Origin: Deltaproteobacteria bacterium
GTDB lineage: Bacteria; Desulfobacterota; WTBG01; CAIYCZ01; CAIRTM01
Assembly (NCBI GenBank): GCA_016875025.1
Contig: VGSH01000003.1
Coordinates: forward strand, 1-56,210
Direction: 5' to 3'
DNA length: 56,210 nt
How positions within the stretch are numbered: position 1 is the first letter of the stretch; each line of letters begins with the position of its first letter. The notes beneath the pieces are model-generated. The model saw only the letters and a program-made list of their open reading frames with translations. It searched no databases and was not told the DNA's origin. The translations under genes and the position numbers were made by a program. Shown here in pieces: positions 30,991 through 43,323 of the stretch.

Positions 30991-31020
30991 GTAGGGCGGA
31001 CTAAGCGCAGCATGTCCGCC
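30991..31020 (+). repeat. GTAG-type REP-like hairpin
   Basis: GTAG followed by GGCGGAC-n12-GTCCGCC. Confidence 0.6.
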
Positions 31021-31271
31021 AACCCAGTTCAACCCTGCCTGCCCTCTGCGGCTCCTCTTTTGATTCCGCTTCTCGCGGAATGAATGTTAAATACAGCACA
31101 GATTGTTTTTGAAAAGCCTTTGTTTGCAAAACGGGGGCTTTTGTTATATAACAAGCGTAACATTTTAAATTTGTATATGTGTTTAAATAGCCGCACAGCA
31201 CAATATAGTGTGGTTCTATCATGACCTGTGCCACAATATATCTTTAATGCTTCAATCACTGAAAAAAGTTC

Positions 31272-31300
31272 TTGACAAATAAATTTAAATGCTATAGCAT
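31272..31300 (+). promoter_or_regulatory. Sigma70 promoter of the hsd operon with overlapping palindromic operator
   Basis: TTGACA-17-TAGCAT; perfect palindrome ATGCTATAGCAT (31289-31300) covers the -10 box. Confidence 0.7.
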
Positions 31301-31324
31301 ACCTGACATATGGAGGAACTAAGC

Positions 31325-33145
31325 ATGCTCGATATACGCGATATAAGCACGGTTGTGAAGGAATTGAGAAGCAGGCTGAATTTAAGTCAGGAGGAACTGG
31401 CAGCAAAGCTCGGGGTTTCGTTTGCCACGGTCAACCGCTGGGAAAACGAGCGGATCGTGCCGCGCGGCAAGGCCCGCGCCGCGATTCAGAAGCTGATTGA
31501 AGAGAGCGGCCTTGATGAGAGCGATTCCGGTGAGGCTGACACCTCCGCGAGTCCGATCAAAAAGCGAAGGCGCTCAAAATCAAAGGACGACGTGTTGAGC
31601 AACAGATCAATGGAGCAGATGCTGTGGAGTGCGGCCTGCTCTATTCGCGGTGAAAAGGACGCGCCCAAGTTCAAGGACTATATCCTGCCGCTTGTTTTTA
31701 TCAAGCGGCTTTCAGACGTGTTCGAGGATGAAGTGCAGCGACTTTCTGAAACCTACGGCGATACGGATACGGCCTTGTCCATAATTGAGGCTGATCACGG
31801 GCTGGTGCGTTTTTTTATTCCGCCTGAGGCGCGTTGGCCGGTTGTGAGCAGGCGCGAGCAGTTTAACTGGCCTGATGACCGCAAGCCGAAGACCTTGGGT
31901 GAGCAGCTGACCATCACGGTTCGCTCTATCGTGAAACAAAACCCGAGCCTGAGCGGCGTGATCGACACGGTTGATTACAATGAAACCCGCAACGGCGAGC
32001 GCGAGATCAGCGACACGGCCCTCTCCGGTGTGATTGAAACGCTGACTGATCCGCGCTACCGCCTCGGCCTCTATGATGTCGAGCCTGACTTTCTCGGCCG
32101 GGCCTATGAATACCTGCTGCGCAAATTTGCCGAAGGCCAGGGCCAGAGCGCGGGTGAGTTTTTTACTCCCACCGAGGTCGGCTGGCTTATGGGCTATATT
32201 GTGCGGCCGAGTCAGGGTGAAGAGGTCTATGATTTTGCCTGCGGCTCGGCCGGGTTGCTTATTAAGTGCGAGCTTGCCCTGCAGGAGCGCGAGCTGAAAG
32301 TGAAGCGCCCGCTCAAACTCTACGGTCAGGAGCTGACCGGCTCCAGCTACGCCATCGCCCGCATGAACATGGTTATTCACGACATGGAAGGCGAAATCGT
32401 GCGCGGCAATTCCATGACCAATCCCAAGTTCAGGGAGTCGGATTCGGGCCTCAGAAAATTCGACATCGTTGTCGCCAATCCCATGTGGAACCAGCCCTTT
32501 GATACGGCCGTGTATGACAACGACCCCTACGATCGTTTCGAACCCCGGGGCGGCATCACCACCGGCAAGGCCGACTGGGCCTGGATGCAGCACACCGCCG
32601 CCTCGCTCAAAGATCACGGACGCGCTGCCGTGGTTATCGATACCGGCGCGGTCACACGCGGCAGCGGGAGTAAAAGCGAAGACCGCGAAAAGAAAATCCG
32701 CAAGTGGTTTGTTGATAATGATCTCGTTGAAGGCGTGATCCTGCTGCCGGACAACCTGTTTTACAACACCACCGCAGCCGGAATCATCATTGTATTTAAC
32801 AAGCACAAGCCCCCTGTTCGCAAAGGCAAAATCGTGCTGGTGAACGCAAGCCAGGAATGCAAGAAAGGCAGGCCGAAAAACTACATCCCTGATGAAAGCA
32901 TCCACCGGATCGCCGATGCTTTTATTCAGGCTAAGGATATAGAGCGGTTTGTGAAGGTCATTACAAACGAAAAAGCAGCGGAGGAGGATTATAACCTCTC
33001 GCCGTCAAGGTATGTAGATACAGCGGCCAAGGAGATATATAGACACATCCCGGAAATATTGCTGGAATTGAAGCAGGTCGAACAGCAGGCACAGTCGATA
33101 GACACAGAACTGGACGCTATCTTCAAAAAATTGAAACTGGAGTAG
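31325..33145 (+). CDS. hsdM: Type I R-M methyltransferase HsdM with N-terminal XRE HTH
   Basis: SQEELAAKLGVSFATVNRWE HTH; LWSAACSIRG, GEFFTP, DFACGSAG, ANPMW; GGAGG before ATG 31325. Confidence 0.95.
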   Translation: MLDIRDISTVVKELRSRLNLSQEELAAKLGVSFATVNRWENERIVPRGKARAAIQKLIEESGLDESDSGEADTSASPIKKRRRSKSKDDVLSNRSMEQMLWSAACSIRGEKDAPKFKDYILPLVFIKRLSDVFEDEVQRLSETYGDTDTALSIIEADHGLVRFFIPPEARWPVVSRREQFNWPDDRKPKTLGEQLTITVRSIVKQNPSLSGVIDTVDYNETRNGEREISDTALSGVIETLTDPRYRLGLYDVEPDFLGRAYEYLLRKFAEGQGQSAGEFFTPTEVGWLMGYIVRPSQGEEVYDFACGSAGLLIKCELALQERELKVKRPLKLYGQELTGSSYAIARMNMVIHDMEGEIVRGNSMTNPKFRESDSGLRKFDIVVANPMWNQPFDTAVYDNDPYDRFEPRGGITTGKADWAWMQHTAASLKDHGRAAVVIDTGAVTRGSGSKSEDREKKIRKWFVDNDLVEGVILLPDNLFYNTTAAGIIIVFNKHKPPVRKGKIVLVNASQECKKGRPKNYIPDESIHRIADAFIQAKDIERFVKVITNEKAAEEDYNLSPSRYVDTAAKEIYRHIPEILLELKQVEQQAQSIDTELDAIFKKLKLE

Positions 33146-33147
33146 AT

Positions 33148-34404
33148 ATGGCCACACCAGTATGGGCAGAAAGCTCATTGAGCAGTTTGTGCTCTCTTGT
33201 TAAAGACACATGCAATCCATCGTCTTGTGGTGTGGATGCATATATAGGGTTAGAGCATATTGAGTCAGGCAGGTTTAACTTAAAAAACTATGGCTCCCCT
33301 CACCACGTACGGAGTTCTAAAAATAAATTTAAGAAAAATGATGTGTTGTATGGAAAGTTGCGGCCTTACCTTGATAAGGCAGTGGTAGCGGATCGTGAAG
33401 GAATTTGTTCTACGGATATACTGGTTTTCAGACCAAAGGGTGGCACACCACCACACTTTTTAGCGGGCGTTTTGCACAGGGATGAATTTATTCAATATGC
33501 AAACAAGACTACTCATGGGCTTAATCATCCGCGCACGTCCTGGGCTTCATTAAGGGAATTCTCTTTGAGGGTTCCTTCTGTAGATGAGCAGAAAAAAATC
33601 GCTGCCGTTCTTTTTAAAATTCAAACAGCGATCGAATTACAGGAGCGCATCATTGAAACAACCCGCGAGTTGAAAAAATCAACCATGCAGCATGTTTTTA
33701 CCTGCGGCCTGCGGGGCGAGAAAACAAAGGAAACCGAGCTTGGCCGGATACCGGAAAGCTGGGATGTCGTTGAAATATCTAAATGTTGCAATATCCGGAG
33801 TGCAACCATTGCTTTTGAAGAGTTTAAAAAGTTTTATGAGAATGAAGATGGGTGTGAATGTTGCGCAATAAAAGTTTCTGACATGAATTTACCTGGGAAT
33901 GAAAAATGGATTAATGAAGCTAACATAAATTTTAAATATCCGTTTGAGCGTATTGCCCAAAAGGCTATTCCAGCGAATTCAATAATTTTCCCCAAAAGGG
34001 GTGCGGCGATAGCAACAAACAAAAAAAGGCTAACCACAAAATGGACTTTTTTGGATCCGAACTTAATTGCCTTAATCCCACAGAAAAAAATCAGTTATGA
34101 ATTTTTATACTATTGGTTTTTAACGTTTGATTTGACAAAAATTCAGGATTTGGGTCCAACGCCTCAGTTAAATAAAAAAGATATTTCTCCATTGTTGATA
34201 CCGTGTCCTCGTGAACGTGAGCAAAATGAAATCGTGAATGTTTTACAGTCTGTTGATAAAAAAATTGAGCTCCAAAGCGCAAAAAAAACTGAATTACAAG
34301 ATTTGTTCAAAGCAATGTTGAACAAGTTGATGACGGGTGAGATACGGGTTAAGGATTTAGATGTTGATTGTGGTGATGTGCAGTTTTTTGGCAAGGAGTT
34401 ATGA
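33148..34404 (+). CDS. hsdS: Type I R-M specificity subunit
   Basis: Two TRDs with conserved P..EQ..I..L helices and GRIPESW; LYGKLRPYL. Confidence 0.93.
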   Translation: MATPVWAESSLSSLCSLVKDTCNPSSCGVDAYIGLEHIESGRFNLKNYGSPHHVRSSKNKFKKNDVLYGKLRPYLDKAVVADREGICSTDILVFRPKGGTPPHFLAGVLHRDEFIQYANKTTHGLNHPRTSWASLREFSLRVPSVDEQKKIAAVLFKIQTAIELQERIIETTRELKKSTMQHVFTCGLRGEKTKETELGRIPESWDVVEISKCCNIRSATIAFEEFKKFYENEDGCECCAIKVSDMNLPGNEKWINEANINFKYPFERIAQKAIPANSIIFPKRGAAIATNKKRLTTKWTFLDPNLIALIPQKKISYEFLYYWFLTFDLTKIQDLGPTPQLNKKDISPLLIPCPREREQNEIVNVLQSVDKKIELQSAKKTELQDLFKAMLNKLMTGEIRVKDLDVDCGDVQFFGKEL

Positions 34405-35288
34405 TGCAGAACATACCGGCATTAGAGAGCCTTCAGCACAAGTTGAGCAACATACAAAATTTAGAATTTATTAAGGGCGGAGGTTTCAAGGCCGTTTACA
34501 AGGGATTTGTCGGTGGCAAAACTGAGGCAATAAAGCTTATTTATATACCATCTGATATTGAAAATGAAGGCTTGCGTGATGAGATCATCGGACGGACATT
34601 GAGGGAAATTGATTCAATAAAAGCCTGCGATTGTGATTACATTGTGCGCCTCGGTTCACTATCACCGGAATTGATAACCCTAAACGGCAATGAATATATT
34701 GTGTATAGCGAGGAATTCCTTGATGGGGTTGATTTGCGTGAGCGGATAATACAAGGCCATACGCCGGATATAAAGACCTTGCAGTGTTTGGCATTTACTC
34801 TTTTTGAGGCGATTAGTTTTTTCAAAAAGAATGATTTGATTCACAGGGATATCAAACCTGACAATGTAATAGCATTACAGTGTGCGGAAAGGCCATTCGT
34901 CATCCTTGATCTTGGTATTGCGTTCAAATTACATGGAACAGCTTTGACGCGTCTGTCAGAGTTTCGTCCAGGGACACTACCGTATATGGCCCCGGAGATG
35001 TTTAACGCACGTTTTCGTGAGACACTTGATTACAGGAGTGACTTGTATTCTGCTGGGGTAACGCTATATGAATATGCGTCGGGGAAACACCCTATAACAA
35101 GAAGACGAGACGATGAATACACAACGATGTATCGAATTATTAATTCAGCACCTATCCCCCTCGCAAGCCATCGACCGGATTTGCCCATAGAATTTTGTAA
35201 GGTTATAGATCAGTTGATTAAAAAATTACCAGCTTTGCGCCCATCGTCAATAGAGATGCTATTGAAAAAGATAAAGGAGCAACCATGA
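34401..35288 (+). CDS. Hanks-type Ser/Thr protein kinase, kinase domain only
   Basis: GGGFKAVY, AIK, IHRDIKPDN, DLG, GTLPYMAPE, SDLYSAG. Confidence 0.95.
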   Translation: MMQNIPALESLQHKLSNIQNLEFIKGGGFKAVYKGFVGGKTEAIKLIYIPSDIENEGLRDEIIGRTLREIDSIKACDCDYIVRLGSLSPELITLNGNEYIVYSEEFLDGVDLRERIIQGHTPDIKTLQCLAFTLFEAISFFKKNDLIHRDIKPDNVIALQCAERPFVILDLGIAFKLHGTALTRLSEFRPGTLPYMAPEMFNARFRETLDYRSDLYSAGVTLYEYASGKHPITRRRDDEYTTMYRIINSAPIPLASHRPDLPIEFCKVIDQLIKKLPALRPSSIEMLLKKIKEQP

Positions 35289-36484
35289 AACTCTTTGCAC
35301 AACATGGATACGGGCCGGGGGATAAAATTCTTAATGGTATACAGGAAGGTTCTATCAGTGGTGTGATTCTAAGCGCACGCTATCAAAAAAAAGAGAAACT
35401 TAATAGTGATATTGAAAATATTATAAACATATCGAATAATGCTGAAATTTTAATGGATCCAGAGATATATGCATGTATATGTGCAAACATGCCCGATTCA
35501 CAACTTGGCCAGTTGGTTGATTGGGATTTCTTTCGACCCCATCGGAGGGCTCAGCTAGAAGATACATCAAACATAGACGGGGTCTTGGGTGCTACATTCA
35601 CGACAATGGCTGGTTTCCCTCTTACATCGATCATAGCCCCAAACATTTTTATTCCAAGGTCTTTTAACTCTATCGAAGCAGTTATTGCAAAAAATTTTAT
35701 ACGACGAACTATGCCGGTATTTGCCCAAACAGGAGACACTCGGCATGTTTTTGCCACCTTGGCAATCGGGCACCATGCACTTTTGGACCGAGATGAATTC
35801 GGGGCATTTTTAAATGACATCACCGCATTAGATAATCCGCCAGACGGATTTTATGTTTTAATCGGTGGGGGCATGGCAGACGAAAGGACGGACATTACCC
35901 GCTCCGAAATAATGCATGCTGATGTTATTGCAGGATGGATGCTTTTGAATTTTACGCTGAAGATGAATGGCTTTAAGGTGATTAATGGTTGTTCTGATAT
36001 TTTGACCCCTTTGTTGGGGGGGGTGGGCGGATATGCTGGTGCTACTGGTTGGTGGACAAATCTGAGGATGTTTTCCATGAATAAATACATAAGAACAGCC
36101 AGCGGGGGCAGGCAGCCTGTGGTTCGTTATCTAAGTAACATCATTTTGAATAGAATTAAATTTTCAGAAAGGGAGGCAATAGCCGCCTTGATTCCCGAAA
36201 TCAACAACGGCCTTGCTCATGACAGTGATTATGAATCTGGCGAGCCTGAGCGACGGGTGGAAGTTTTGCAAACATGGGAATCTATTAAGAACCTCAATGA
36301 GCATTTAATAGGTTCCAATGTTGAGGAGAGTATACGGCGTTTGGAAAATGCTATTAAACGAGCAGATGCTACCTACACAAGGCTATCTGGGTTTGGGTTG
36401 CCATTGGATATCGAGACAAATCGTGAGTATATAACCTCTTTACGGGAAGGGCTAAAAACGTTTAAGCAGATAGCTGAAATTTAG
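35285..36484 (+). CDS. Hypothetical 399-aa protein coupled to the kinase
   Basis: ATGA overlap and AAGGAG RBS; alternating alpha/beta pattern (QHGYG, GVILS, DPEIY); loosely reminiscent of sce7725/beta-family proteins. Confidence 0.85.
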   Translation: MKLFAQHGYGPGDKILNGIQEGSISGVILSARYQKKEKLNSDIENIINISNNAEILMDPEIYACICANMPDSQLGQLVDWDFFRPHRRAQLEDTSNIDGVLGATFTTMAGFPLTSIIAPNIFIPRSFNSIEAVIAKNFIRRTMPVFAQTGDTRHVFATLAIGHHALLDRDEFGAFLNDITALDNPPDGFYVLIGGGMADERTDITRSEIMHADVIAGWMLLNFTLKMNGFKVINGCSDILTPLLGGVGGYAGATGWWTNLRMFSMNKYIRTASGGRQPVVRYLSNIILNRIKFSEREAIAALIPEINNGLAHDSDYESGEPERRVEVLQTWESIKNLNEHLIGSNVEESIRRLENAIKRADATYTRLSGFGLPLDIETNREYITSLREGLKTFKQIAEI

Positions 36485-37067
36485 AGGCCTTTGCAACTAG
36501 TTGTATTGCACGGGGAATATATTTAGGCTCCAAAGGGGTAGATGGTCTCGGTGTGTATAGTTGTTTAATGCTGCCGCTACCTTGCGAAAAACCCCAGAGG
36601 CCGACTTTAATCGTTTTAAATGTCTCAATAAATCGAGATGCTGTGTGAAGAGCTTCGTCAGGAAGCACAACAATACTGACATTGGCAAAATATCTGTATC
36701 TATGAGCCTGCATTAGTGCTTTTCTCCAATTTGATATTTTTAGTTCGAAGGCTCTAAGAATAGGCTTTGCTACTTTAATGAAATCTATAACATTCTGGGG
36801 CTGATCATGTGCAGGTAAGTTGTCTGGGTTAAAATACAGCGCAACAAAATCGGCTATGCCGTAACCGTTTATAGGTATTTCACGAGAAAAATAGACCTCT
36901 GTCCGAGCTGATCCATAATGCAGCGAGGCAAACTGTGAGATATAAGACCTTGCAAAACTGATGGTAAAATCTCTTTCTGTATTCTTTCTGGAGACTTTAG
37001 CAGACAGATTCCGTCTGGGTTCTCGGAAGCTGTATTTTGGTATGAAGATGTTTGATTGTTTTTGCAT
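36462..37067 (-). CDS. PD-(D/E)xK-like nuclease-fold protein
   Basis: REIPINGYGIADFV...AFELKISNWRKALMQAHRY (E...D...ExK...QxxxY); 23-bp convergent overlap; start ATG 37067 or TTG 37127. Confidence 0.75.
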   Translation of the reverse strand: MQKQSNIFIPKYSFREPRRNLSAKVSRKNTERDFTISFARSYISQFASLHYGSARTEVYFSREIPINGYGIADFVALYFNPDNLPAHDQPQNVIDFIKVAKPILRAFELKISNWRKALMQAHRYRYFANVSIVVLPDEALHTASRFIETFKTIKVGLWGFSQGSGSIKQLYTPRPSTPLEPKYIPRAIQLVAKASKFQLSA

Positions 37068-37164
37068 GTCTAAATTATAGCTTTTAACGGATGTATTACA
37101 ATCGTTTTTTCGGAAAAATACAGACAATTATTAGCAAATAATATAATAAAATAGCATTAAAGGA

Positions 37165-37287
37165 AATAAAGGCGAAATTGTTGTTTGTCAGTCAAGTGGC
37201 AGTAGCTTGAAGGTCAATTCAGCTGTTGCAAAAATTGCAATAGTTGAAAGCGGAGTGGCGTGTGAACTATCCGGGAAAACCGGTTAG
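37165..37287 (+). pseudogene. Possible RhuM-like gene relic carrying two palindromes
   Basis: Startless frame NKGEIVVCQS...NSAVAKIAIV resembles the RhuM-family N-terminus and its VAKxAxV motif (recalled similarity only). Confidence 0.4.
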
Positions 37288-37324
37288 TTTATGATTGCGA
37301 TATGCGGTATATGGGCATTGAATT

Positions 37325-38749
37325 ATGAAGTTGAGAGAGTCGGAAATAATTGAGCTGAAAGCTTCTACTGCCCAGTTGAGCAGGGCGCTGGAATCGTTGT
37401 GCGCGTTTGCAAACACGAATCTTGGCACTGTGTTTTTCGGCATAGATGACAGTGGGCATGCTGTCGGCCAGGATGTGAGTGACCGGACGGTTCGCAACAT
37501 TACCACGGATATCTTGTCGCAGATAGAGCCGCGGCTGTTTCCGAACATATGGGTGGAGGAGCTGCAGGGCAAAACCGTCCTGAAAGTTGAATTGAAGGCA
37601 GCTCCTGAAAAGCCGTACTTTTATAAGGGCAAAGCCTATAAGCGGGTAGGCACCAGTAACGTGTATCTGTCGCGCTATGAAATTGAAAAATATCTGTATG
37701 AACGCGACAACCCGGCCTATCACTATGATAAAACTATTGCCGCCGGCTATGCCGGTGGAATTAACCGCGACAGGCTGGTGTGGTTTCTCGGCAAAGCCAG
37801 TGAAGGGCGCAATCTGCCGGTTGATGATTCCGCGCCGCAGGACTCTACCCTTGAAAAGCTCGGCCTGTTCACGGACGGTCGGCTTAATTTCTCAGGGGTT
37901 CTGGCATTCGGCTTTGATATTCCGCTGACGCTGCCGCATGCATATGTGAAGTGCGCTTCGTTTGAGGGAACTGACAAGACCGGCAAGATTCTGGATCATG
38001 CCGACATTAAGGAGGATGTGTTTCGGCAGATTGATCTGGCGGAAGCGTTTATACTGCGCAATATCCGCAAATCTGCGGAAGTTGATTCTGAGACCATGCG
38101 GCGTGAAACCCGGTATGAGGTCCCGCACCGGGCCATTCGTGAAGCTGTTGCCAATGCCGTGGCCCACCGTGATTATCGAATTGCAAGCACGGTAGATGTT
38201 GCCCTGTTTGATGACCGGATTGAAATTTGGTCGCCGGGCAGTTTGCCGAACGGCATGACGCTGGAGCTGTTGCGAAAAGACCACGCCTCTGTGCTGCGCA
38301 ATGCCGCCCTTGCTGAAATGCTGTATCTGGCCGGCTATATTGAGCATTGGGGAACCGGTATCAGGAATATGCAGACGTGGATGCGGGAATACGGCCTGCC
38401 TGAGCCGGAATACCGTGAGGATGGAATCAGCTTTGTAACTGTTTTAAAACGCGAACAGGCGGTGGCCCACCCCGCAAGTACCCCGCAAGTACCCCGCAAG
38501 TACCCCGCAAGTACCCCGCAAGTTGAGGCGGTGCTTGCTTTTTGTATTTCACCTCAAAAACGTGAGGATATACAGGCACATTTGGGATTGCTGGACCGAG
38601 AACACTTCAGAAAGACAATATTGAATCCAATGGTTGCGGAGGAATTGCTGGCTTTGACTATTCCGGACAAACTAAAGAGTTCGAAACAGCAGTATGTGAC
38701 GACAGAGAAGGGTAAGCAAGTATTAAAGACAAGCGTGGGAGGTTCGTAA
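37325..38749 (+). CDS. AlbA_2/Schlafen domain + HATPase_c_4-like domain + C-terminal winged HTH
   Basis: ESEIIELK, CAFANTNLG, REAVANAVAHRDY, IEIWSPG, IEHWGTG, TIPDKLKSSKQQY. Confidence 0.9.
   Translation: MKLRESEIIELKASTAQLSRALESLCAFANTNLGTVFFGIDDSGHAVGQDVSDRTVRNITTDILSQIEPRLFPNIWVEELQGKTVLKVELKAAPEKPYFYKGKAYKRVGTSNVYLSRYEIEKYLYERDNPAYHYDKTIAAGYAGGINRDRLVWFLGKASEGRNLPVDDSAPQDSTLEKLGLFTDGRLNFSGVLAFGFDIPLTLPHAYVKCASFEGTDKTGKILDHADIKEDVFRQIDLAEAFILRNIRKSAEVDSETMRRETRYEVPHRAIREAVANAVAHRDYRIASTVDVALFDDRIEIWSPGSLPNGMTLELLRKDHASVLRNAALAEMLYLAGYIEHWGTGIRNMQTWMREYGLPEPEYREDGISFVTVLKREQAVAHPASTPQVPRKYPASTPQVEAVLAFCISPQKREDIQAHLGLLDREHFRKTILNPMVAEELLALTIPDKLKSSKQQYVTTEKGKQVLKTSVGGS
38469..38523 (+). 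repeat. Five tandem copies of ACCCCGCAAGT (11 bp) inside a CDS
   Basis: Exact copies start at 38469, 38480, 38491, 38502 and 38513. Confidence 0.95.
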
Positions 38750-38768
38750 ATCGATACTTATATCGGAG

Positions 38769-38884
38769 CAGATGTTGCAAGTTTTGCAACATCTGGTTCT
38801 CGGGCCGCAGGGAGTTGTCCGGAAGTACCGGACAACTCATTCAGCATTAAAGGTGACTATTAGGTATGTGCATTATGTGCACAT
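38769..38884. repeat. Array of three short palindromes with 5-nt spacers
   Basis: CAGATGTTGCA-agttt-TGCAACATCTG; GAGTTGTCCGG-aagta-CCGGACAACTC; ATGTGCA-ttatg-TGCACAT. Confidence 0.85.
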
Positions 38885-38922
38885 GCTGGCGAAATAACAC
38901 AATGCAGGAAGGACATCATGTA

Positions 38923-41838
38923 ATGCCTGTAAACCTTGGAACGGAAGCAGCAGCCGTTCAAAATCCTTTAATTGCCTATGCCGCCGCGATCGGCTGGGAA
39001 GCTGTTTCGCGCGATGAAGCGCTTTCGCTCAGAAAAGGTGAAAGCGGGCTGTTTTTTTACCGCGTGCTGGAGCAGCAGCTTGTGAAGCTGAACCGGGGCA
39101 TTGCCACAAACGAAAAAGCAGCTGAGATTATCCGCAGTCTTGAGGCGGTTCGCAACAATATTGAGGGCAACGCCGAAGTGCTGTCGTGGCTGCGCGGCGA
39201 GCAGAGCGTCTACGTTGAAAAGGAGAACCGGCGCCGGAATGTGATGGTGGTTGATTTTGAAAATCCGAAACGCAATGTCTTTCAGGTAACCGATGAATGG
39301 CAGTATACCAACGGGCGTGAGACCAACCGGGCGGATATCATGTTTTTGATCAACGGTATTCCGGTTGCTGTTGTGGAGGCCAAAAGCGCCCGCAAGATTA
39401 ATGCTGTTGAAGAGGGCCTGATGCAAATTCGGGAGTATCACCGCGAGACGCCTGAAATGCTGACCTGCCCGCAGGTGTTCGACATAACGCACCTGATTGA
39501 TTTTTACTACGGTTCTACCTGGAACCTTGACCGCAAGGATATTTTTAACTGGAAGGATGATGAGCCGGGAAGTTTTGAGAAAAAGGTTAAGCGGTTTTTC
39601 GACCAGCAGCGTTTTTTAAAAATGCTCAAGGAGTGGATTGTTTTCTATGTTAAGGACGATGAGTTGCGCAAGACCATTCTGCGCCAGCACCAGACCCGCG
39701 CCATAGACAAGGTGCTTGAGCGCTGCGCCGATGCTGAAAAAAAGACCGGGCTGGTATGGCATACGCAGGGATCGGGCAAAACATTCACCATGATTACCGC
39801 TGCCCGGCAGATTCTTGAAAACAGGGATGTGTTCGGCAAGGCAACGGTAATTCTCATGATCGACCGCAATGAGCTTGAGGGGCAGCTCTCCGGTTGGGTT
39901 GAGCGTATTTTGGGGGAGATGAAAAATTTTGATATCAGTATCGAGTCGGCTACAAGCAAGCTGCGGCTCCGCGAGCTTCTGGCATCTGATTTCCGGGGCC
40001 TGATTATCTCCATGATCCATAAGTTTGACGGTATCCCCAAAGATATCTGCACGCGCGAAAACGTGTTTGTTATGGCGGATGAAGCGCATCGCTCGTTCGG
40101 CCGGGATCTGGGCAACTATCTGGTGGGTGCGCTGCCGAAAGCAACCCTGATCGGGTTCACCGGCACACCGATTGATAAAACCGCCTACGGCAAGGGCACC
40201 TTCAAGGTGTTCGGCCGGGAGGATGAAAAAGGGTATCTGGACAAGTATTCCATTGCCGAGTCGATCGGGGACGGCACCACGTTGCCGCTGAACTATACCC
40301 TGGCCCCCAATGAAATCCGGGTGCCACGCGAGCAGCTGGAACAGGAATTCCTTGATATGGTTGAAGCCGAGGGGGTGAGCGATGTTGAGGATTTGAATAA
40401 AATTCTTGATCAGGCCGTCAACCTCAAAGCATTTTTAAAGTCGGATGACCGGGTAAAGAAGGTCGCCGCGTTTGTTGCCGAGCATTTTAAACAGTGCATT
40501 GAACCGTTGGGGTATAAGGCCTTTCTGGTGGCGGTGGATCGTGAGGCCTGTGCTTTGTATAAGGACGCGCTCGATCGGCTGCTGCCGCCTGAATATTCGA
40601 CCCCGGTCTATACAGCGGCTCAGCATGACAGTGAACGCTACCCGCTGGTGTACAAACATCAGATCCCCGAGCTGGAAGAAAAAAAAGCGCGCAAACTGTT
40701 TATCAAACCGCAGAGCCTGCCCAAAATATTTATCGTAACGGACAAGCTGCTGACCGGTTTTGATGCCCCGATTCTGTACTGCATGTATCTTGATAAACCC
40801 ATGCGCGACCATGTGCTGCTGCAGGCCATTGCGCGGGTGAACCGGCCCTATGAGGAAGACGGCGACATCAAGAAACCCTGCGGGCTGGTTATTGACTTTG
40901 TCGGCATATTTGAAAAACTCGAGAAAGCGCTTGCTTTTGATTCGGATGTGGTCAGCGGGATGATCAATAACCTTGAGGTTTTGAAGGCCCGATTTTACGA
41001 GGTGATGAGCGGTCAGGCAAGGCAGTATCTGGATTTGACCGCAGGGGAAATAAACGACAAGGCAGTTGAGCGGGCCATTGATATGTTTGTTGATTTGGCC
41101 AGCCGTGAGGATTTCTACAAATGCTTTAAAGAGATAGAAATGATGTATGAAATTCTCTCACCTTCACCTGATCTGCGCGATTATGTCGATGATTTTGGAC
41201 GACTCTCGGTGCTGTATCAGATTGTGCGCAATGCGTTCAGGAAGAAAACAGTACTGTACGGCGATGTTGCAAGGAAGACCGAGCTTTTGGTTCGGGAAAA
41301 AGTTGCGACATACGGGCTGCAAACCACCATGCCGGTGGTGAAAATAGATGAGCATACCCTGAAGGCAGTCAAGGAGAGCAGGTCAACCGACAGCACAAAA
41401 GTCATTAACCTGATCAACAGCATCAACACAACGGTCTTCAGCGAGGGGGAGGAAAATCCCTACCTGAAGTCCATCGGCGACCGGGTTGAAAATATACAGC
41501 AGGCCTTCGATGACCGGCAGATTACTTCTCAGGATGCCTTGAAAAAAATTGAGCAGCTGCTGCAGGAAATAGTTGAGGCCCGCAAACAGCAGAAAGAGAC
41601 CGGTTTTGACATTAATACCTTTACCATTTACTGGACACTGAAGAAGGAGGGTATCGGCGAGCCGGAAAAACATGCCCCGGCTCTCAATGGGGCATTTGAG
41701 CGGTTTCCGAATTACAATCACAGCGGGGCCGAGCTTCGGGAACTCAAGGCGGAATTATATAAACTTGTGCTGCCGGTTATCGGGAAAGACCGGATGGTTG
41801 GCCTTGTTGATACCCTTTTGAAGCTGAAAAGAAAATGA
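38923..41838 (+). CDS. hsdR: Type I R-M restriction subunit
   Basis: RADIMFLINGIPVAVVEAK nuclease; HTQGSGKT, DEAHRS, GFTGTP, LLTGFDAP, QAIARVNR helicase motifs; ATG 38923 chosen. Confidence 0.96.
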   Translation: MPVNLGTEAAAVQNPLIAYAAAIGWEAVSRDEALSLRKGESGLFFYRVLEQQLVKLNRGIATNEKAAEIIRSLEAVRNNIEGNAEVLSWLRGEQSVYVEKENRRRNVMVVDFENPKRNVFQVTDEWQYTNGRETNRADIMFLINGIPVAVVEAKSARKINAVEEGLMQIREYHRETPEMLTCPQVFDITHLIDFYYGSTWNLDRKDIFNWKDDEPGSFEKKVKRFFDQQRFLKMLKEWIVFYVKDDELRKTILRQHQTRAIDKVLERCADAEKKTGLVWHTQGSGKTFTMITAARQILENRDVFGKATVILMIDRNELEGQLSGWVERILGEMKNFDISIESATSKLRLRELLASDFRGLIISMIHKFDGIPKDICTRENVFVMADEAHRSFGRDLGNYLVGALPKATLIGFTGTPIDKTAYGKGTFKVFGREDEKGYLDKYSIAESIGDGTTLPLNYTLAPNEIRVPREQLEQEFLDMVEAEGVSDVEDLNKILDQAVNLKAFLKSDDRVKKVAAFVAEHFKQCIEPLGYKAFLVAVDREACALYKDALDRLLPPEYSTPVYTAAQHDSERYPLVYKHQIPELEEKKARKLFIKPQSLPKIFIVTDKLLTGFDAPILYCMYLDKPMRDHVLLQAIARVNRPYEEDGDIKKPCGLVIDFVGIFEKLEKALAFDSDVVSGMINNLEVLKARFYEVMSGQARQYLDLTAGEINDKAVERAIDMFVDLASREDFYKCFKEIEMMYEILSPSPDLRDYVDDFGRLSVLYQIVRNAFRKKTVLYGDVARKTELLVREKVATYGLQTTMPVVKIDEHTLKAVKESRSTDSTKVINLINSINTTVFSEGEENPYLKSIGDRVENIQQAFDDRQITSQDALKKIEQLLQEIVEARKQQKETGFDINTFTIYWTLKKEGIGEPEKHAPALNGAFERFPNYNHSGAELRELKAELYKLVLPVIGKDRMVGLVDTLLKLKRK

Positions 41839-42170
41839 CCAAATTGTCCCGAAACGGCCTGCGGACCGTTGAACAGTTTAAGGAGGCGGTTGTGCAGTGG
41901 GCTGCTCGGATAAAGGTAGAGCCGACTCAAGTGCGCCTGCAGAAGATGACGCGGAAATGGGCCTCGTGTTCTACTAGCGGCTGGATTTGTTTCAGCATGG
42001 ATTTGTTGCGGGAAAAACCTGATTTTCAGGAATACGCAATTGTGCACGAACTGCTGCATCTGCAGGTTCCCAATCACGGCAGGCTGTTTAAAAGCCTGCT
42101 GCGAGCCTATCTGCCTGAGTGGGAAGAGATTGTGGAACGGCGCGGAAGCGCTCTTGAGCGGGAAATCTAA
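41835..42170 (+). CDS. Short YgjP/DUF45 (M48-like) metal-dependent hydrolase
   Basis: KWASCS, YAIVHELLHL, NHGRLF; usual position after hsdR. Confidence 0.88.
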   Translation: MTKLSRNGLRTVEQFKEAVVQWAARIKVEPTQVRLQKMTRKWASCSTSGWICFSMDLLREKPDFQEYAIVHELLHLQVPNHGRLFKSLLRAYLPEWEEIVERRGSALEREI

Positions 42171-42249
42171 ACTGCTTCATAGTCGGCACTGAAAAATACA
42201 TCACTGTTTAGCATACAAGGGAGCCTTATTAAAGCGCGTGACCGGGCCG

Positions 42250-43323
42250 TTACCGCAGGTCGGTGAATGTCTCGCCCGGGTGCGGGATCAGGAATCGGGT
42301 GTCTCCCATGTCGGCCGCGCGCAGGGCGTCGAGCAGCGCGGTTTCCGGCTCGTACTGGCCGTCATCGCCCAGCGGGAATGTGCCGAAATGCGAGGCAATG
42401 CTGGTGCGGGCCTTCAGGACGGCGTGGGCGCGCACGGCATCGGCAGGCGAGAGGTGATGGGGACCCATAAACCATTCCGGCAGGAAGGCGCCGATGGGCA
42501 GCAGGGCACAGCTGATGTCCGGGAAGCGGGCCGCGATCTGCTCGAAATGCGGGCCAAACCCGGTGTCAGCGGCGAAGTACACGGCGCCGGGTCCGCCCTC
42601 AATCACGAATCCGCACCAGAGGCTTTTGCGTTGATCCCGCATACCGCGGGCTGAGAAATGCCGGGCTGGAACACAGACCAGGTTGAGGCAATCACCCAGC
42701 GGCAGTTCCTCCCACCAGTCCATTTCAACCACATCGCGCATGCCGTGGCGCGCAAGCGTGCGGGCGTTGCCAAGGGGCGTGTAGATGCGCGGCGCACATT
42801 TTTTCTGCAGGCGCTTCAGCGTGGGTATGTCCATGTGATCGTAGTGATTGTGCGAGATCAGCACAATGTCGATGCGCGGCAGGTCTTCAAAGCGAATGCC
42901 GGGCGCATGCACGCGTTTTGGACCGGTAAATGACACCGGGCTGCAGCGATCTGACCAGACCGGGTCAACCAGGATATTGAGACCCTTGAGCTGTATGAGA
43001 AAGGTGCTGTGGTTGATAAAGGTTATGTGCAGCTCATCGCCGCCAACGCAGGCTGCCGGGGCCGCCCCCGGTGTGATGTCAACCCAGTCCTGCCACGGTC
43101 CGCGCTGGCGGTTGCGAACCCAGGTGAGGAATTCTTTGAAGCCCTGTTTCTCAACCTCTCCGGGATTAAAAAATCTTTTGCCGTCAAAGTGGTCACTGGC
43201 AGGATAGGACCCGGCAAGCGACATGCGCGCACAGCCCAGCGCCAATCCTGCGCCGGCTGCCGCTGCCAGCAGGATAATGGCCGTTCGCACTGATCCGGGC
43301 ATGTGTCGGGCCGGACGGAGCAT
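42250..43323 (-). CDS. MBL-fold metallohydrolase (NAPE-PLD/RomA-like), probably exported
   Basis: SHNHYDHMD, PARHFSARG, FAADTG, LLPIGA, HFGTF; lipobox-like LALGC; start uncertain. Confidence 0.9.
   Translation of the reverse strand: MLRPARHMPGSVRTAIILLAAAAGAGLALGCARMSLAGSYPASDHFDGKRFFNPGEVEKQGFKEFLTWVRNRQRGPWQDWVDITPGAAPAACVGGDELHITFINHSTFLIQLKGLNILVDPVWSDRCSPVSFTGPKRVHAPGIRFEDLPRIDIVLISHNHYDHMDIPTLKRLQKKCAPRIYTPLGNARTLARHGMRDVVEMDWWEELPLGDCLNLVCVPARHFSARGMRDQRKSLWCGFVIEGGPGAVYFAADTGFGPHFEQIAARFPDISCALLPIGAFLPEWFMGPHHLSPADAVRAHAVLKARTSIASHFGTFPLGDDGQYEPETALLDALRAADMGDTRFLIPHPGETFTDLR

Follow-up and report, generated by a model that had tools for sequence, protein, structure and literature searches.

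The window analyzed here is a 56,210-nt stretch of a Deltaproteobacteria bacterium genome (assembly GCA_016875025.1, contig VGSH01000003.1) and contains a type I restriction-modification (R-M) locus, in which a cargo gene with an SLFN_AlbA_2 domain (hereafter, the AlbA gene) is flanked by short palindromes: A and B on the left, and a second pair, A' and B', on the right, followed by a third palindrome ahead of hsdR (Table 1). The four A/B palindromes match a palindromic site located inside rhuM genes, two of them significantly and two at the borderline, and the third palindrome shares its arms with one plasmid-borne rhuM gene. The TGCA and CCGG cores, by which A and B palindromes differ, are allelic versions of this one rhuM site, featuring Ala..Ala and Arg..Arg codons, respectively. 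Probably, the window palindromes are leftover copies of the rhuM site, marking an older passenger gene that was cut up and replaced. The gene rhuM (PF13310, Virulence_RhuM) is often carried as a passenger by type I R-M loci.

To characterize the site within intact genes, rhuM genes were collected by PF13310 (present in 56 of 151 related genomes) and from a scan of viral contigs, which added 80 loci, resulting in 75 distinct genes. Each of these genes carries a palindrome of approximately 27 bp at the junction of the N-terminal helix-turn-helix (HTH)-like region and the Pfam RhuM domain, spanning the codons x-T/V-V/I-R/A/K-K|F-R/A/L-T/I-V/T. The YNLD motif follows 46 to 64 nt downstream of the palindrome, whose center is the third base of a Lys/Asn codon (phase 2). 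At least 9 of 13 positions form Watson-Crick pairs in all 75 genes, and at least 10 do so in 72 of them. Overall, 88.6% of the cells were paired, compared to 65.4% after shuffling, and the covariation score reached 0.664 versus 0.208 for shuffled data (attained by none of 500 shuffles) and 0.142 at most for slid controls. The four pairs at third codon positions were paired in 75, 73, 68, and 75 of the 75 genes, and constraint on the protein therefore does not explain the pairing.

While the outer AAC/GTT bases and the AA-n-TT center of the rhuM palindrome are conserved, 30 distinct inner arms were counted among the 75 genes, including CCGG/CCGG (Arg..Arg), TGCAA/TTGCA (Ala..Ala), and CAAG/CTTG (Lys..Leu), as well as CGAGG/CCTCG (Glu..Ser), TTCC/GGAA (Ser..Glu), and GTAAG/CTTAC (Cys-Lys..Leu-Gln). 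Mismatches at pairs 3-12 (750 cells) comprised 7 G.T, 11 A.C, and 14 other oppositions; this lack of a preference for G.U on the sense strand indicates a constraint on the DNA, or on strict complementarity, and not specifically on the mRNA. Furthermore, all seven rhuM genes analyzed from named plasmids possess the palindrome at the homologous site (9-12 of 13 pairs). These genes represent five phyla (Campylobacterota, Alpha- and Gammaproteobacteria, Actinomycetota, Bacillota, and Bacteroidota), and the GC content ranges from 29% to 65%. On the plasmids of Aliarcobacter and Roseomonas, rhuM lies directly 3' of hsdM. In the genome to which the window belongs, PF13310 matched only at C11 and C5, and rhuM-type palindromes outside the locus were found only inside these two genes; the palindrome of the C5 gene (C5:8235) encodes VVVRNFRTTT.

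A corresponding palindrome was detected in a second gene family, ORF6N (PF10543), which was present in 51 of 121 genomes, with ten matches in the window's own genome. It encodes LRSQFVTS, shows 11-13 of 13 pairs in all 15 distinct genes, with covarying arms, and also features an AA-n-TT center. The distance from the palindrome to the conserved YAFTE motif downstream of it is 42-48 nt in 13 of the 15 genes and 52 and 78 nt in the remaining two, and the center falls in codon phase 0, likewise in 13 of 15, in contrast to phase 2 in rhuM. ORF6N genes carrying the palindrome were noted at L302-L331 in relatives and at C6:15373, C40:8842, C47:12171, C86:41, C120:8464, and C151:2113 and 3233 in the own genome; orphan copies of the ORF6N palindrome also occur, for example at L084 (approximately 1725-1752) and L343. 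The five palindromes of the window are of the rhuM type. A full-text literature search returned no description of a palindrome in rhuM or ORF6N genes, and the conserved intragenic element thus appears to be unreported. In earlier articles, RhuM genes are described as enriched beside invertible R-M genes, or as present in islands (PMC9881135, 10.1101/2025.10.03.680192, PMC13597742, PMC5704556).

All five palindromes described in the initial annotation were recovered at their positions on reading the sequence, the spacing between the A and B centers being 44 nt on the left and 43 nt on the right. The absence of a U-tail was likewise confirmed, as no T-run follows any of the five; the terminator scan called no terminator at these sites, and their 3' flanks are not T-rich. 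Ordinary terminator stems with A/T-run flanks do occur elsewhere in the genome. The window palindromes exceed chance expectation. Among the 15 perfect hairpins of the window with a stem of at least 8 bp, right A and right B are the longest two, and among the 232 perfect hairpins of the 3.25-Mb genome (stem of at least 10, loop of 3-8), they represent the only pair located within 80 nt of each other. The pattern TTGCA-n5-TGCAA occurs at eight sites in the genome, two of them at this locus, and ATGTGCA-n5-TGCACAT is unique to the third palindrome. By contrast, the ATGTGCA half-site that had been noted at the 3' end of hsdS is attributable to chance, since the genome contains 575 copies of this 7-mer, with 14 in the window. 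An Rfam scan of positions 31000-42500 returned no match at E <= 1.

For assignment of the window palindromes, the 75 intact rhuM genes, none of which originates from the window or its close relatives, were used to build a covariance model (R1), which was searched with filters off on both strands of the window and of three metagenome contigs, L084, L102, and L147. The four A/B palindromes were the top four R1 matches in the window. Left A scored 22.3 bits (E 1.6e-5, positions 37211-37255) and right B 18.7 bits (E 3.7e-4), followed by right A in third place (13.6 bits, E 0.034) and left B in fourth (13.0 bits, E 0.055); the next match scored 12.3 bits. Higher values were achieved in the relatives, with 50.4 bits for A of L084, and 22.7 and 14.7 bits for B of L102 and L084, respectively. 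All window copies matched by R1 are oriented like the genes.

The readings of the single copies agree with individual rhuM types. Left A reads SAVAKIAIVES, corresponding to the type V-A-K-I/F-A, and the palindromes of the L250 and L264 rhuM genes are near-identical to it. Left B reads TIRENRLV in frame 1 (type T-I-R-K-F-R-I-V) and has the same arms, AAC(C/T)ATCCGG...CCGGATAGTT, as the rhuM genes of L166 and L199. Right A, reading DVASFATS in frame 2 (type V-V-A-N-F-A-T-T), is identical to the L175 rhuM palindrome at 23 of 27 nt, and right B, reading VVRKYRTT in frame 3, is identical at 23 of 25 nt to the rhuM site of L003 (G039) and at 21 of 25 nt to the own-genome gene C5:8235 (manual counts); its Val, Arg, and Thr codons are the same as in the intact C5 and L003 genes. 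The 7-bp arms of the third palindrome are identical to those of a rhuM palindrome at the homologous site on a Pseudomonas paraeruginosa plasmid, which encodes NVQNLHI and has its center shifted by one base. The third palindrome is possibly a copy of the rhuM site of the N-V-Q-N-L-H-I type and, at the same time, part of a conserved hsdR leader.

Additional remnants of rhuM became apparent when a DNA profile of 76 rhuM 5' regions was searched with nhmmer. In L084, A and its flanks matched profile positions 158-217 (E 4.9e-8), and B and its flanks matched positions 167-229 (E 3e-4). As these positions overlap, A and B represent two copies of one rhuM segment of different allelic types. A mini-ORF (open reading frame) of 27 codons, MKIEDKGEITIYQAKGGKTALEAKLEA, just upstream of A in L084, matched positions 2-58 (E 0.014) and resembles the N-terminus of the L003 rhuM gene; the putative remnant at 37168..37215 of the window aligns with this mini-ORF. 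In the window, left A matched positions 162-203 with E 0.11, and B reached an E of about 1. When 23 RhuM N-terminal segments were compared by tblastn with 160 AlbA loci and the window, the window remnants were not detected; clear matches were limited to L084 (E 0.005) and the true rhuM gene of L045, the 11 other listed matches having E values of 0.1-0.8. No intact rhuM gene is present in the window, where PF13310 has no match and all three frames around the palindromes contain stops, and the sites are therefore remnants rather than genes. The right region can also be read as a single continuous rhuM remnant (ISEQMLQVLQHL versus ISEHIRNIFAES, identical at 12 of 32 positions, E 0.003 in a very small search space), but this reading was judged less probable, because the R1 match and the near-identity to L175 support right A as a palindrome copy.

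The boundaries of homology to related loci were also analyzed. A DNA search of 61 related genomes with positions 37100-39000 yielded matches in three of them, including the own genome; the two non-self matches, in G006 and in G039 (at an 11-nt repeat described below), both fall within AlbA, and neither covers the hairpins. Closer relatives were found on the three metagenome contigs. L102 encodes AlbA residues 1-141 (95% at the amino-acid level), L084 encodes residues 1-313 (87%) with 2.2 kb of upstream sequence, and L147 encodes residues 347-470 (86%) with 3.2 kb of downstream sequence. The blastn blocks begin at 37220 in L084, at the edge of left A, and at 37264 in L102, at the edge of left B, and the block of L147 ends at 38753, just past the AlbA stop codon. 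In the alignments, A is kept upstream in L084, B in L084 and L102, and A' downstream in L147, with weaker similarity continuing upstream of A in L084. The surroundings in L084 and L147 are not type I R-M, since an alanyl-tRNA-synthetase-like gene lies upstream, and PRiA4_ORF3, AbiEii, and HTH genes lie downstream. Hence, the module consisting of the rhuM N-terminal remnant, A, B, the AlbA gene, and A' occurs in another genomic context. At L003 (1468-1554; G039:C64, same class), an AlbA-type linker remnant (VPHP..TPQVPRKLPASTPQV) is located directly upstream of rhuM, which represents another AlbA/rhuM junction.

A decayed orthologous locus is present on one strand of G006, a genome of the same family. 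Its order begins with a remnant of the hsdS C-terminus (ALQNFFKTMLNKVMTS*), directly followed by an A-B palindrome pair approximately 54 nt apart and close to that of L084, the first approximately 10 AlbA codons, and then approximately 6.7 kb of unrelated genes. Downstream of these, AlbA residues 300-467 with a frame change, the conserved third palindrome core (GTGCA-n5-TGCAC) with the leader that follows it, and the first 15 hsdR codons, ending in a stop, were identified. Neither A' nor B' was found between the AlbA gene and the hsdR leader in G006. In these loci, cargo has repeatedly been overwritten, with every gene leaving remnants.

To evaluate the prevalence of the site outside intact genes, R1 matches, which occurred in 65 of 150 related genomes, were compared by eye with the PF13310 table, and 36 matches outside PF13310 genes were picked. 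They comprised 24 of the rhuM type, 8 of the ORF6N type, and 4 unclear cases. Apart from one frameshifted pseudogene, the 24 rhuM-type orphans consist of isolated palindromes or truncated 5' fragments (23 cases). In a scan of the neighbors of 13 orphan loci, R-M genes were directly adjacent in five, with the arrangements HsdS/fragment/HsdR, HsdM, methylase/palindrome/GmrSD, HsdS, and DUF1016/palindrome/HsdM; the neighbors at the other eight include Cas7/Cas4 with a RhuM-Fic gene, ResIII/PIN, DUF559, a transposase, Fic, and Bro-N. The proposal of the initial annotation that the palindromes are scar sites at cargo boundaries was therefore borne out, as homology blocks start or end beside them and orphans lie at R-M and defense junctions elsewhere.

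Table 1. Genes, remnants, and palindromes of the R-M locus, with positions in the window.
Feature	Position	Strand	Description
hsdM with fused HTH_3	31310-33145		Pfam: HTH_3, HsdM_N, N6_Mtase
hsdS	33148-34404		Pfam
Ser/Thr kinase	34401-35288		PADLOC mad6, E 2.7e-36; PD-T4-6-like; ATGA overlap with hsdS
399-aa ORF	35285-36484	+	overlaps kinase; no Pfam or PADLOC family
221-aa ORF	36462-37127	-	no Pfam or PADLOC family
Probable rhuM N-terminus remnant	37168..37215	+	frame 2 reads KGEIVVCQSSGSSLKV; without start codon
Left palindrome A	37218-37248	+	13-nt arms, two G.T oppositions, TGCA core
Left palindrome B	37265-37289	+	10-nt arms, one T.T mismatch, CCGG core
AlbA (cargo) gene, 474 aa	37325..38749	+	Pfam: SLFN_AlbA_2, HATPase_c_4, Fic-like_C (winged HTH, wHTH)
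Right palindrome A (A')	38769-38795	+	perfect; 12-bp stem with 3-nt loop or 11 bp with 5-nt loop; TGCA core
Right palindrome B (B')	38812-38838	+	perfect 11-bp stem, CCGG core
Third palindrome, ATGTGCA-ttatg-TGCACAT	38866-38884	+	perfect 7-bp stem; 39-57 nt upstream of hsdR start
hsdR, type I restriction subunit	38923..41838	+	Pfam: HSDR_N, SWI2_SNF2, ResIII
YgjP-like metallopeptidase ORF, 111 aa	41835-42170		overlaps hsdR end; covers only profile positions 113-201 of 207

Within the R-M locus, the N-terminal HTH_3 domain of HsdM (residues 16-52), preceding HsdM_N and N6_Mtase, might bind DNA and act on the operon in the manner of a controller protein. The putative start of hsdR is the ATG at 38923 (MPVNLGTE), and the aligned G006 remnant opens with MPANLNTE. 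The YgjP-like ORF is probably a truncated gene. A Pfam scan of nine neighboring ORFs revealed no recombinase families. The AlbA gene contains a perfect tandem repeat at positions 38469-38523, where an 11-nt unit, ACCCCGCAAGT, is present in 5.0 copies; the repeat falls in the linker that precedes the C-terminal wHTH. Five units, the first two degenerate, are present in L147, and three in the G006 homologue, whose two tblastn segments lie in different frames. Since 11 is not a multiple of 3, changes in copy number shift the AlbA frame, and the repeat might serve to switch the C-terminal domain on and off, or be a site prone to inactivation.

Two families resembling repetitive extragenic palindromic (REP) sequences were encountered in the genome. 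One of them is GTAGGGGCACGG-catg-CCGTGCCCCTAC with its variants, present in dozens of copies, and the other is G(C/T)ACCC(T/C)TTCTTTG...CAAAGAA(A/G)GGGT(G/A)C, flanked by TTTCTTGGGG. The Y1_Tnp domain matched 19 times in the genome, in each case on a contig other than contig C3; 9 of the 19 matches start at base 1 of a contig, which suggests a multi-copy IS200-like element breaking the assembly.

The window palindromes were compared with known systems. With intact rhuM genes, they share the sequence and structure of the site at the start of the RhuM domain, as well as an N-terminus remnant to the left, but the window retains only fragments of approximately 40-75 nt, in tandem, on both sides of another gene. 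The initial annotation had further suggested an integron-like mechanism that loads and swaps cargo. Integron attC sites are 55-141 nt long, possess R''/L''-L'/R' boxes (GTTRRRY) and extrahelical bases, and are processed by the IntI integrase. Like these, the window sites are imperfect palindromes at gene junctions, in which the pairing is kept while the inner sequence varies and the outer bases are conserved. However, they measure 25-31 nt, lack such boxes (judged by the consensus), derive from a coding motif, and include a perfect right pair, there is no integrase or other recombinase nearby, and no flanking hairpin arrays were found at any of the 13 closest AlbA homologues in genome_contigs (51-57% at the amino-acid level, from many phyla), so that an integron-like mechanism is not supported. 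REP sequences and bacterial interspersed mosaic elements (BIMEs), associated with Y1-type REP-associated tyrosine transposases (RAYTs), resemble the window sites as short palindromes without a U-tail between co-oriented genes, but REPs are high-copy, whereas the window palindromes number five at a single locus. The ends of IS200/IS605-type insertion sequences (ISs) and of palindrome-associated transposable elements (PATEs) differ in that contig C3 lacks Y1_Tnp and the module is single-copy, and intrinsic terminators differ by their U-tract. A further parallel is offered by templated mutation at quasipalindromes, described for Escherichia coli, in which template switching perfects imperfect inverted repeats and creates mutational hotspots in single genes. 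Such a process would explain strict pairing without G.U bias, the concerted change of both arms, and perfect arms in remnants, with no function being needed; it is not known, however, to persist throughout an entire gene family or in several phyla.

A rhuM gene was probably once located between hsdS and hsdR, as it is in many type I R-M loci. Successive events of illegitimate or short-homology recombination would then have broken this gene and overwritten it with incoming cargo, the junctions coming to lie beside the palindrome. The palindromes might outlast their flanks, either because one arm templates the repair of the other or because they are favored as stem-loops, and a dedicated recombinase would be unnecessary. 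In present-day transcripts, they would also fold into stem-loops within both untranslated regions (5' and 3') of the AlbA message, as well as in front of hsdR. As for the two core types that had been described as recurring in the same order on both sides, the order is indeed the same, but the types are allelic variants of one rhuM site and not two kinds of site.

Several observations weigh against the assignment of the window palindromes to rhuM remnants. The shared core order and the near-equal spacing on both sides are left unexplained by it, and, the left pair being of a '..VQ' subtype and the right pair of a '..TT' subtype, the pairs are not simple duplicates of each other. No other close tandem pair (<100 nt) was found by the model in 83 loci. 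Right A and left B are borderline by R1, the third palindrome is not matched by R1, and the N-terminal remnant of the window does not reach significance on its own. At right B, similarity to rhuM is confined to the 25-nt palindrome and absent from its flanks; keeping the palindrome without flanks is unlike uniform neutral decay of a pseudogene and calls for self-correction or selection. Moreover, arm mismatches of the extragenic A copies on the + strand comprise five G.T and no A.C oppositions (manual count), which hints at a retained + strand structure and thus at a present function rather than a pure relic. Finally, in the 23 truncated or isolated orphans, rhuM similarity ends approximately 3-12 codons past the palindrome, as judged by eye; this cluster of truncation points is subject to bias, as any longer fragment would match PF13310 and so fall outside the sample.

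The first alternative is that the palindromes, whatever their origin, act at present as RNA stem-loops, serving as a 5' stabilizer and a 3' barrier of the AlbA mRNA and lowering read-through into hsdR, similar to REP-type hairpins. This is consistent with the orientation of all copies, with the position of orphans between co-oriented genes elsewhere (e.g., methylase/GmrSD and HsdS/HsdR), and with the folding results. The + strand yielded z-scores of -5.8 for the left and -7.0 for the right region, none of 200 shuffles folding as well, and the right region folds with -60 kcal/mol. For the left region, -34.1 kcal/mol were obtained on the + strand versus -18.5 kcal/mol on the - strand, and for L147, -30.4 versus -17.6 kcal/mol, because the mismatches are G.U on the + strand. 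However, the B hairpin of L102 folds better on the - strand, the hairpins are only slightly more conserved than neighboring non-coding DNA between the window and L084 (76-81% versus approximately 65%, an estimate), the spacer between the AlbA gene and hsdR in G006 manages without the right pair, and no U-tract is present. An ongoing role as RNA stem-loops is thus considered unlikely.

According to the second alternative, recombination or breakage occurs in a structure-specific manner at the rhuM/ORF6N palindrome, where a hairpin or cruciform forms and is either cut or used for strand exchange at a set distance 3' of the stem. In this way, cargo would be loaded and swapped in R-M and other defense loci, and the window arrays would be the products of several such events. 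The homology blocks that start at the 5' edges of left A and left B and end just after right A would fit such a site, as would the A-B pair directly following the hsdS remnant in G006, the common end of rhuM similarity in the 23 orphans, and the L285 ORF6N example, in which two tandem palindromes are present with the joint four codons after the first. The fact that two gene families with different codon phases both preserve the palindrome as DNA and the unbiased G.T and A.C mismatches of rhuM genes also argue for it. On the other hand, the locus encodes no recombinase, all Y1 matches being on other contigs, the varying arms make a recombinase that reads sequence unlikely, and the truncation points carry the ascertainment bias described above. 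In addition, hsdS, the AlbA gene, and hsdR leave remnants in G006 as well, so that ordinary decay explains much. Contigs from four lake and freshwater metagenome runs were near-identical to positions 33000-42000 (0 to 10 differing letters per listed piece), and no alternative joints of the locus were found in them; a single apparent joint from 39126 to 33000 was an artifact of a 17-nt repeat, ACAAACGAAAAAGCAGC, common to the 3' part of hsdM (approximately 32963) and the 5' part of hsdR (approximately 39106). Both the proposed cutting of the site and the origin of the window arrays from such events are regarded as quite improbable. As to operators for a dimeric HTH protein (the AlbA wHTH, the HTH_3 fused to HsdM at its N-terminus, or a RhuM encoded elsewhere), the palindromic symmetry, the position in a divergent promoter region on the left and ahead of hsdR on the right, and outer AAC/GTT bases and an AA-n-TT center that could be read by a protein would suit them, but this explanation is hardly credible, since inner arms that differ between copies and yet are complementary point to base pairing rather than to a common half-site, the palindrome type is present in all 75 rhuM genes and in the viral-contig and plasmid sets whatever the genomic context, and also in rhuM genes that have no AlbA gene in their vicinity, and the 13 closest AlbA homologues in genome_contigs lack such sites. 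A promoter scan revealed no promoter-like site on the + strand upstream of the AlbA gene.

With rhuM remnants, the matched arrays around the cargo gene are explained by something that can be checked, and R1 provides a simple marker for tracing the gain and loss of passenger genes in type I R-M and other defense loci. The main worth of the finding is the covarying DNA palindrome itself, which occurs in two common gene families and whose orphan copies mark junctions of defense loci. More tentatively, it is conceivable that the rhuM/ORF6N palindrome, being conserved as a structure rather than as a sequence across phyla, GC contents from 29% to 65%, and codon phases, is an active hairpin or cruciform, either a hotspot for breaking, joining, and exchanging genes in R-M and other defense loci or a cis-regulatory DNA element of the rhuM and ORF6N genes, with the arrays at the AlbA gene as its footprints. 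Both rhuM and ORF6N are very common DNA-binding protein families of phages and defense islands. Each of the 75 rhuM and 15 ORF6N genes examined maintains part of its coding sequence as a near-perfect DNA palindrome with covarying arms, so that pairs of amino acids change together by codon complementarity. This may be read either as self-perpetuating templated mutation that shapes protein sequence or as an unrecognized functional DNA element in very common genes of mobile elements.

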